Assembly: GCA_964016885.1 (NCBI GenBank)
Contig: OZ024742.1
Coordinates: 201,686,001-201,750,000 of the forward strand
Length of the DNA: 64,000 nt
Direction: 5' to 3'
Source of the DNA: Eledone cirrhosa
Taxonomy: Eukaryota
The position numbers and the translations under genes were made by a program. Below the pieces are notes generated by a model. The model searched no databases. It was given only the letters and a program-made list of their open reading frames with translations, and had not been told where the DNA came from. This document shows positions 22,163 through 25,102 of the stretch, one piece after another; positions within the stretch are counted from its first letter, which is position 1; each line of letters opens with the position of its first letter.

Positions 22163-22532
22163 ATATATATATATATATATATATATATATATATATATAT
22201 ATATATATATACACACACACACACACACACACATATATATATATATATATATATATATATATATGATAAAACATGTCTATAGAATCATAAGATAAAATAT
22301 ATACCATTTCCTCTCCCAATTAGCATAAGTAATTATATAAAAAAATCGAATAGACCAAGCTATAAGAATGAGGCTTCTATGAAGAAATCTCCAACAAATA
22401 ACCGAAACTAGCCCTTCGCGTCGGCCGCAACGGAATATTTATCGAATATTTCGACAGCGTAATCGCCCAGATACAGTCAACTAAACAGAATTAGGTGTAA
22501 AATAAACTAGGAGAAATAGAATACATTTAAAT

Positions 22533-22620
22533 ACCTCTACCATGGTTTCATCCGCATTTTGAGTTTTCCAATAATTATGTAATAGTTATATAAACTCGAG
22601 CACCGGATTCATCAGGAGAT
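22533..22620 (-). ncRNA. Type I hammerhead ribozyme, intact core
   Basis: Minus strand: ATCTC-CTGATGA-ATCCG...CGGAT-GAAA-CCATGG-TA-GAGGT. Stem I 5 bp, extended stem II, palindromic stem III, GUA cleavage triplet. Confidence 0.88.
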
Positions 22621-23070
22621 TTGCTCTTATCTAGACACTACATTTTCTAAAGTGATCACGCCAAGAATTCATTCAAAATGGCTAAGAATCGATTTTTTAC
22701 ATAGTTAATTATTGGGAGAGGAAATGGTATATATTTTATCTTGTGATTCTATAGACATGTTTTATGATATATAGCTCTGATTATTTAATTTATTAATTTT
22801 TCATTGAGCCACAAAGTGACCCGTTGCAAAACACGTATATGTATATATATGTATATATATATATGTAAACTTTTATATGTAATAATCTCCCATTAGGTTG
22901 AGATACAAATTTGGCTGTATTGTGCTGTGCTTTCTAGCAAAAATGCCACCAGTCGTAAGCAACTACCACACCCCTTCAAACCTGACCGCGGCTACGTCAC
23001 GATTCTTAGCCATTTTGAATGAATTCTTGGCGCGATCACTTTGGAAAATTTAGTGTCTAGATAAGAGTAA

Positions 23071-23158
23071 ATCTCCTAATGAATCCGGCGCTCGAGTTTA
23101 TATAATTATTACATAATTATTGGAAAACTTAAAATTCGGATGAAACCATGGTAGAGGT
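23071..23158 (+). ncRNA. Type I hammerhead, core-mutated copy (CTAATGA)
   Basis: Same stems as 22533-22620 but with G5A in the catalytic core. Confidence 0.75.
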
Positions 23159-23910
23159 ATTTAAATGTATTCTATTTTCTCCTAGTTTATTTTACACCTA
23201 ATTCTGTTTAGTTGACTGTATCTGGGCGATTACGCTGTCGAAATATTCGATAAATATTCCGTTGCGGCCGACACGTAGGGCTAGTTTCGGTTATTTGTTG
23301 GAGATTTCTTCATAGAAGCCTCATTCTTATAGCCTGGTCTATTCGATTTTTTATATAGTTAATTATGCTAATTGGGAGAGGAAATGGTATATATTTTATC
23401 TTGTGATTCTATAGACATGTTTTATGATATATAGCTCTGATTATTTAATTTATTAATTATTCATTGAGCCATAAAGTGACCCGTTGCAAAACACGTATAT
23501 GTATATATATGTATATATATATATATATGTAAACTTTTATATATATATATATATATATAATATATATATATATATATATATATATATATATATATATATA
23601 TATATATATATATATATATATATATATATATATATATATATATATATGTATTGAAAAAAGGAGGCGCACAGGACAGTGGAAGAAAACAACGAGAAGATAT
23701 ATAAATCTACATGTATGTATGTACACCCCTAAACCTTCTTAAATGAGATAATATACGGCAAAACTGAAAACTATATACGAAAAAGACCGCACTACCCGAA
23801 TAGATTCAATACTTCATATATTCTGGCTTACAAATTATCGTTACTTAGTTTTCTATTGTTAGGTGGACGATCTCAAAATGTCGGAATGACTAGCTGCGGA
23901 AATAATACCC

Positions 23911-23989
23911 CAGTGAAACGCGCGGTTTCGACGGGAAAATGTCGGGAGTTTAATATAGTTTTGTATATTACAACTCGTCCCTCGGACTG
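23911..23989 (-). ncRNA. Degenerate hammerhead-like motif
   Basis: Minus strand: CAGT-CCGAGG-GACGAG...CCCGTC-GAAA-CCGCGCGTT-TC-ACTG. Stems I and II are recognisable; core and stem III are damaged. Confidence 0.4.
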
Positions 23990-24169
23990 ATGTATCATGT
24001 TTTTACTAAATTACAGATATGTATATATATATATATATATATATATATATATATATATATATATATATATATATATATATATATATATATATATATATAC
24101 ATACATATATATATATATATATATATATATATATATATATATATATATATATATATATATATATATATA

Positions 24170-24375
24170 TAGGAACGAGTAGGACCCCGACGGCTAAGCT
24201 CAAGCCGTTTCGACGGCTAATTCTGGACTAATTCTGAGTCCAGAATTAGCCTCCGAAACGGCTTGAGCTCATCCGTCGGGGTCCTACTCGTTCCTATTAC
24301 CCACTCTACTACCCTAAGTATTGAGTACTTTGGTGCGTTATGGTCCACCTGGTTCCTTACCACATTTCCTTTGTT
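24170..24375 (+). mobile_element. Fold-back insert, family TAGGAACGAG (copy B)
   Basis: Palindrome 24170-24296 plus a ~79-bp tail. Contains the hammerhead 3' half GAAA-CGGCT...CCG-TC-GGGGTCC. Confidence 0.8.
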
Positions 24376-24391
24376 ATATATATATATATAT

Positions 24392-25102
24392 ATATACTAT
24401 AAAGTATGTCCATAGAATCATTTAATAATATATATACACCATTTCCTCTCCCAATTAGTATAATTAACCACACAAAAAATCAATTAAACCAGGCCATAAG
24501 ATTAAAAGTCACTTATGACGAAATAGTAGATAAATAAACGACAACAATCTATTCGCGACCAACCGCTATAGAATATTTACCCAACATTTCAATAGCACGT
24601 GGAAATCGATTAACTATACCGTCAACCATACACAATTAGGTATAACATTAAAGTTAGAAGAAACAATCATATACACATACCAAGATTACGCTTCTACCCT
24701 TAGGGCTTCGTTCGCTTTAGGAAATATCCTATTAAGGACAAAATCTCGAGCCTCGAACTCATCAGGAAAAAAACTCATTTGGACAAAGAATTTTCTTCAG
24801 TGATCCTCTCCAGAAACGAATTCAAAATGGCTAAGAACTGTGACGTGGCAGTGGTCAAGTCAGAAAGAATGTGATTGGTTGCTTACGGCGAGTGGGCTAG
24901 TTGCTAGAAAGCGCAGCCCAATATTGCCCAAATTGCATCTCAACCCTATGGGAGATTATCAAATATAAAGATTTACATATACACAAACTAGACAAAGTCA
25001 GAGATATATATGCTTTGGCAACCATTCACGATGTGGCTCAATGATGAATTAATAAATTAAATAATCAGAGCAATATACTATAAAGTATGTCCATAGAATC
25101 AT
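24392..25102 (-). mobile_element. Divergent subfamily of the non-coding HHR unit: one 681-bp monomer with 30-bp terminal redundancy
   Basis: ATATACTATAAAGTATGTCCATAGAATCAT at 24392-24421 and 25073-25102. Collinear by eye with the 660-bp unit. (TA)n flanks. Confidence 0.85.
24691..24769 (-). ncRNA. Type I hammerhead (GAAG instead of GAAA)
   Basis: Minus strand: TTTC-CTGATGA-GTTCG...CGAAC-GAAG-CCCTAAGGG-TA-GAAG. Confidence 0.75.

Follow-up and report, generated by a model that had tools for sequence, protein, structure and literature searches.

The 64,000-nucleotide stretch of the Eledone cirrhosa genome analysed here (the window) holds two insertions of one hammerhead-bearing repeat family, A, which is inverted, and B, and they raise the question of what kind of element this is and how its copies are made. 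We consider it highly probable that the family is a high-copy repeat without an open reading frame (ORF) that travels as a non-autonomous passenger of the reverse transcriptase-endonuclease of a Penelope-like element (PLE). The initial annotation had likewise proposed a non-autonomous hammerhead element with PLE-type insertions; that part of it stands, while the varied permutation points and unusual length that it also claimed do not.

Two insertions and their predicted RNA elements

Insertion A joins an inverted arm on the minus strand (22258..22691, unit positions 2-435), with its RNA 3′ end, a site that we call E1, at 22258 adjoining (TA)n, to a direct arm on the plus strand (22689-23541). 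The direct arm consists of 92 nt of a 5′-truncated partial unit at the inversion junction (22689..22774, unit positions 92 to 1), a complete 660-nt unit that ends at E1 (22775..23434) and a 107-nt extension, or tail (23435..23541, unit positions 660 to 554), whose end marks a second fixed end point, E2, and is followed by (TA)n. Insertion B (24392-25105, minus strand) comprises a complete 681-nt unit (24392..25072), with its RNA 3′ end at E1 (24392) adjoining (TA)n, and the 33-nt start of a second unit (25073..25105), which forms the variable 5′ end of the insertion. The periods first claimed were recovered (660 for the direct A arm, 681 for B), as was an inverted A copy in front, which lies at 22258-22691 and is 96% identical to the direct arm. 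A and B are collinear and yet diverged, as had been described, with 482 of 646 aligned columns (75%) identical from end to end, and the units are ORF-less in that neither contains an ORF of 61 or more amino acids; the longer listed ORFs are microsatellite frames in the flanks, outside the units. Two details required correction: the terminal redundancy of B is present and measures 33 nt, not 30, and B is not opened at a different point from A, its left end (24392) and that of the inverted A arm (22258) being the same register point, E1.

Each unit carries one hammerhead-shaped motif with the stems originally reported, although core changes in two of the three had been missed. The motif in the inverted A arm (22533..22626, minus strand) is a type I hammerhead with an intact core: stem I AUCUC/GAGGU, CUGAUGA, stem II AUCCG/CGGAU, GAAA and a palindromic stem III. 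Cleavage is predicted between 22538 and 22537, and a pseudoknot is predicted between GAGCA (22626-22622) and UGCUC (22602-22598). The hammerhead of the direct A unit (23065..23158, plus strand) has the core CUAAUGA (G5 to A) and, judging by this change, is likely inactive, and that of B (24690..24777, minus strand; predicted cleavage between 24695 and 24694) has GAAG for GAAA (A15.1 to G). Therefore, only the core at 22533-22626 is intact within the window. In most B copies elsewhere the sequence is GAAA and stem I is GUUUC/GAAAC, and the core is intact in 216 of the 260 arms that span the ribozyme. Rfam scans of the window returned no hammerhead, just microsatellite noise, and our guess is that the long loop II accounts for the miss.

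Covariation across 18 representatives, drawn from 23 clusters, bears out the earlier statement that the stems differ between subfamilies yet stay paired. Indeed, 83% of cells were paired as compared to 29-44% in slid controls, and 39 double changes were counted against 13.9 under a shuffle that ignores the relatedness of the representatives. For example, stems I and II change in step (AUCUC/GAGGU, GUUUC/GAAAC, GUCCC/GGGAU). In the predicted pseudoknot, loop II pairs with the segment immediately upstream of stem I in multiple subfamilies: GAGCA/UGCUC in A, GAGUUU/AAGCUC or AAACUC in B types and GAGCU/AGCUC in A2. The GAG/CUC core of this helix was part of the filter by which sequences were picked, whereas the changes in the adjoining pairs were not, and three rows of the helix alignment sit one column off register. 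Such flank-loop pseudoknots are common in other hammerheads and required there for fast cleavage (PMC3088659).

Between the cleavage site and E1 lies a predicted rod hairpin of ~200-240 nt that is kept across subfamilies on the ribozyme strand only (23165..23400, plus strand, z -1.8 in the A copy; 24430..24690, minus strand, z -5.2 with 0/200 shuffles in B). Over 10 sequences it gave -48 kcal/mol on the ribozyme strand versus -0.6 on the other strand; among its pairs, one-sided changes number 98 and double changes are scarce (4 cells). When whole monomers were folded as circles, only some copies did better than their shuffles (z -1.2 to -4.9, 12 shuffles each). Upstream of the ribozyme are the conserved motifs ACGTCAC and GCCATTTT (22990..23010, plus strand), which we take to be CRE and YY1 motifs; one variant of the pattern was counted 1,055 times, and we infer a promoter role for the stretch.

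A high-copy family with two fixed 3′ ends

Genome-wide counts confirm that this is a high-copy repeat. In the 3.0-Gb genome an exact 22-mer of B occurs 892 times and one of A 1,167 times, with reversed controls at 0, and a descriptor of the family ribozyme, which excludes most B types, has 2,501 matches as compared to 2 for its reversed control. Full monomers cluster at 67-83% likeness, and with two further types that were seen there are at least seven subfamilies. The family is a ~670-base non-coding hammerhead repeat inserted thousands of times in TA microsatellites with a Penelope-like end pattern. It is a new family of a known class, and it may already be catalogued under another name in Repbase or Dfam: the literature, as distinct from repeat databases and preprint supplements, yielded no description of the family or of genomic 5′ ends at PLE hammerhead cuts.

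The ends of 301 distinct insertions, 230 simple and 71 inverted, follow a two-site rule. Simple insertions end at E1 (180) or E2 (37) in 217 of 230 cases and elsewhere in 13, and 59 of the 71 inverted insertions have one E1 arm and one E2 arm. The two sites are 107 nt apart in A and 110 nt apart in B, and (TA)4 is found within 20 nt of 321 of the 351 3′ ends at E1 or E2. The 5′ end of insertions varies freely. What had been read as varied circular permutation points is thus a 3′ end fixed at one of two sites, with only the 5′ end varying. The family accordingly combines the features sought in a non-autonomous PLE, namely fixed 3′ ends, 5′ truncation, partial tandems, inverted 5′ arms and an optional tail on one end, and its targets are microsatellites or AT-rich DNA. 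The published signature of PLEs combines partial tandems with an inverted 5′ arm and a one-sided tail (PMC8557442), the tail spanning the interval from one internal reverse transcription start site to the other (PMC11167929). By analogy, the fixed ends, tail, truncation, tandems, inversions and TA targets of the present family point to PLE-type insertion. The family also has the sequence-level hallmarks of a non-LTR retrozyme, with a type I hammerhead in each unit and tandems of two or more ribozymes that include dimers, trimers and one array of 45 units. It is not a plant LTR retrozyme, which requires type III hammerheads in true LTRs; the topology here is type I and there is no LTR pair.

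5′ ends and the state of the RNA template

Clustering of 5′ ends near the B cleavage site was first seen in similarity-ranked copies. A positional sample from contig C1 comprised 94 B arms from 90 stretches and 76 A arms from 70 stretches, which took in most of the first 100 among the matches listed, and was scored with 26 subfamily references. Ends were compared between the window (-50,+2] around the cleavage site, a 50-nt width set after viewing the first B set, and the next 52 nt. In A, the figures were 16/74 before the site and 2/58 after it (p=0.002), in B they were 25/87 and 4/62 (p=0.0006), and together they were 41/161 and 6/120 (p=3e-6); three ends lay exactly at the site as compared to 0.25 expected. 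In the similarity-ranked sample, which is partly cut by the choice of query, the pile-up repeats in B (17/54 versus 4/37, p=0.024) and is absent in A, among the copies most similar to the one in the window (5/59 versus 4/54). Because 5′ ends pile up just before the predicted cleavage site and then drop, their distribution suggests that the ribozyme cleaves the RNA template in the cell. About 75% of arms continue past the site, and the simplest reading of the mixture is that cut templates were used alongside uncut or re-ligated ones. In vitro, cleavage was unnecessary for insertion by an anole PLE (PMC11167929), and the literature, so far as accessible, calls the role of hammerheads in PLE transposition unclear.

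The templates that were read through might be circles or linear multimers. At one locus (G000:C1:92,985,617-93,016,033; L457-L460) 45 units of the family form a 30.4-kb array with normal E2/E1 outer ends and a higher-order periodicity, units being ~95% alike and 96% at lag 4. Linear multimeric donors therefore exist, and because this array could supply linear multimers a circular template is plausible but unproven. The strict form of the circular account, in which every copy derives from a unit-length circle by rolling reverse transcription, is possible, although we lean away from it. It fits the read-through of most arms and the exact tandem junctions, and arms within one insertion are closer to each other (2.8% apart in A, 4.3% in B) than to the median other insertion (5.1% and 6.4%), with the distance between units of the same insertion roughly half of that between separate insertions. 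Many arms that reach one full unit also stop close to it, between -15 and +55 nt, in 16/32 A and 6/20 B cases; since the unit boundary is TA-rich, microhomology could explain these stops as well. Moreover, circles have been shown for other animal retrozymes (PMC7229834) and circular templates were proposed earlier for PLE tandems (PMC4209133). Against strict circularity, the pile-up at the cleavage site calls for linear templates too, the long array is a possible source of linear multimers, and rare variants are mostly unshared between units of one insertion.

A purely linear account, in which the templates are multimeric transcripts of tandem donors and no circle is involved, is conceivable to a similarly limited degree. 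Long arrays exist, and in vitro the anole PLE used mainly unprocessed RNA (PMC11167929). However, most insertions are of about two units or fewer (three-unit insertions number 8/303), yet at least seven subfamilies have spread in parallel, and each round would lose upstream sequence unless arrays were rebuilt.

The pile-up itself could arise from stalling of the reverse transcriptase at the folded ribozyme, or from TA microhomology, with no cleavage involved, which we regard as unlikely. Many ends do stop before the site, by 6-45 nt, where the sequence is TA-like, and the pile-up is missing from one A sample. However, the drop after the site is seen in both subfamilies, the A windows before and after it have equal AT content (0.77), and a longer internal TA run has a lower end rate (0.15 versus 0.22). 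Furthermore, four junctions (L233, L309, L344 and L124) stop precisely at the first base past the cut, the adjoining base being a mismatch.

A probable Penelope-like helper, the putative cycle and related repeats

The genome encodes potential helpers, including elements with reverse transcriptase and GIY-YIG domains, some with intact long ORFs and (TA)n ends, and a genome scan gave 10,597 GIY-YIG candidates. Intact ORFs occur in the families of L076, L078, L079 and L086. The initial annotation had suggested looking for an autonomous PLE that shares the terminal sequence; none sharing unit sequence was found among 55 PLE-related loci of about nine families, taken from those candidates, by blastn, family profile and tblastn, and seven PLE proteins gave no significant tblastn match to either unit. 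Weak profile matches on the ORF end of one family (E 2-7) were put down to chance. Copies are not always attached to a reverse transcriptase ORF, as 0/225 open 5′ junctions continue into a PLE ORF; six nearby matches were separate elements, an apparent ORF junction at L054 proved to be a short inversion beside an old decayed PLE, and three outlier ribozymes had no ORF nearby. It is therefore very improbable that the insertions are solo pseudo-LTRs, that is, 5′-truncated ends of an autonomous PLE, despite an anatomy shared with the PLE pseudo-LTRs found here (promoter-like motifs, ribozyme, 3′ end and tail), because no sequence is shared in the 55 loci, none of the 225 junctions reaches an ORF, and units are joined head to tail without one. 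For the non-autonomous passenger that we favour, we infer that the helper is some Penelope-like element.

A cycle for such a passenger can be outlined. Transcription of the unit would begin at its promoter-like stretch or result from read-through, and, as the 5′-end pile-up suggests, the pseudoknot-stabilised ribozyme would cut part of the RNA. A PLE protein would then bind the RNA, probably at the conserved rod hairpin, nick a (TA)n target and start reverse transcription inside the RNA at E1 or E2; the two fixed ends are observed, and the enzymatic step is drawn by analogy with PMC11167929. On cut RNA the cDNA would run out at the cleavage site, ~280-300 nt from E1, while an uncut multimer or re-ligated circle would allow read-through and yield complete units as well as partial tandems. 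The inverted insertions may result when reverse transcription is primed at both ends of the target, once at E1 and once at E2. A bolder version, which we put forward tentatively and with less than even confidence, is that the copy ends record the whole cycle in vivo: a pseudoknot-activated cut to unit length, linear monomers giving the stops, circles giving the tandems, and a dimeric PLE enzyme priming at two sites to give the inversions. If true, this would be direct genomic evidence of a hammerhead role in Penelope-type transposition.

Neither the idea of PLE dependence nor the length of the monomer is new, since a 2026 preprint already has both: it regards non-LTR retrozymes as PLE derivatives and reports families of 51-972 nt, so that the monomer is not unusually long, as the initial annotation had held (bioRxiv 10.64898/2026.07.22.740005). 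Like animal non-LTR retrozymes, the present family is ORF-less and low in GC, has one type I hammerhead per unit, ranges from monomers to long head-to-tail arrays and co-occurs with PLEs (PMC7229834; 10.64898/2026.07.22.740005). Unlike them, it consists mostly of dispersed, 5′-truncated copies, and in the accessible animal retrozyme literature we found no description of fixed reverse transcription start sites, tails, inversion rules or the pseudoknot. Circular RNA has been shown for animal retrozymes (PMC7229834), whereas this family is known here from genomic copies. The retrozymes of Li, Clavereau and Pollet (2026) match pseudo-LTRs, while this family has no partner match among the 55 loci.

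With EN+ PLEs (Neptune, Penelope/Poseidon, Naiad; PMC8557442, PMC11167929, PMC4209133) the family shares 5′ truncation, partial tandems, an inverted 5′ arm, a tail on one end, two reverse transcription start sites, AT-rich or (TA)n targets and a hammerhead upstream of the starts. It differs from them in having no ORF, a tail of 107-110 nt rather than 30-40 and, in place of a minimal hammerhead, one with a long extended stem II and a pseudoknot. Its genomic copies have ends at the cleavage site, whereas for the anole element no RNA reads were found to end there (PMC11167929). Chlamys PLEs such as MRC1 (PMC8557442) are likewise non-autonomous passengers with pseudo-LTRs and head-to-tail insertions; unlike this family, they share 3′ sequence with known partners, mostly lack a hammerhead and live in green algal hosts. 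Pairing between the stem I and stem II regions, present in ~40% of hammerheads (Perreault et al. 2011, PMC3088659), is a further likeness, although here the pseudoknot is predicted, the host sequence is a mobile animal repeat and loop II is ~40-50 nt. The value of the family is in its end statistics, through which the function of the PLE hammerhead in vivo can be tested. Its many copies amount to a natural archive of 5′ ends gathered at the predicted cut and of 3′ ends that keep to the two-site rule, and a single unit, with its rod hairpin and two start sites, is a small substrate for studying cleavage, circle formation and PLE priming.

Other hammerheads and repeats were observed along the way. 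Near their 3′ ends, the autonomous PLE families at L076, L082, L091, L092 and L094 carry no more than a degenerate remnant resembling a hammerhead, while the L079 family keeps a minimal hammerhead. An unrelated repeat at L012:2727-2830 (minus strand) has the same ribozyme design, with an 8-bp pseudoknot between flank and loop II, and the flanks of loci L001-L395 contain over 15 further types of repeat with a hammerhead; families of this sort are numerous in the genome. Within the window, a 111-nt unit that carries the shape of a minimal type I hammerhead occurs three times at 25854-26189 (plus strand), and only its first copy retains an intact CUGAGGA core; a related copy is present in L091, and the unit is probably another small retrozyme. 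Identical hammerhead-like motifs at 26789 and 31418 (plus strand) belong to a duplicated element, with a further occurrence in L351. An element of 120-210 nt that contains a long hairpin is present four times (22044-22165, 24170-24380, 31705-31846 and 35160-35356); its copies are set in (TA)n, with no hammerhead seen in them, and it is common in the sampled loci. Finally, a 39-nt unit in which ACC/ACT codons abound is repeated ~549 times within positions 42710-63996, and we guess that this is a threonine-rich mucin-type exon.
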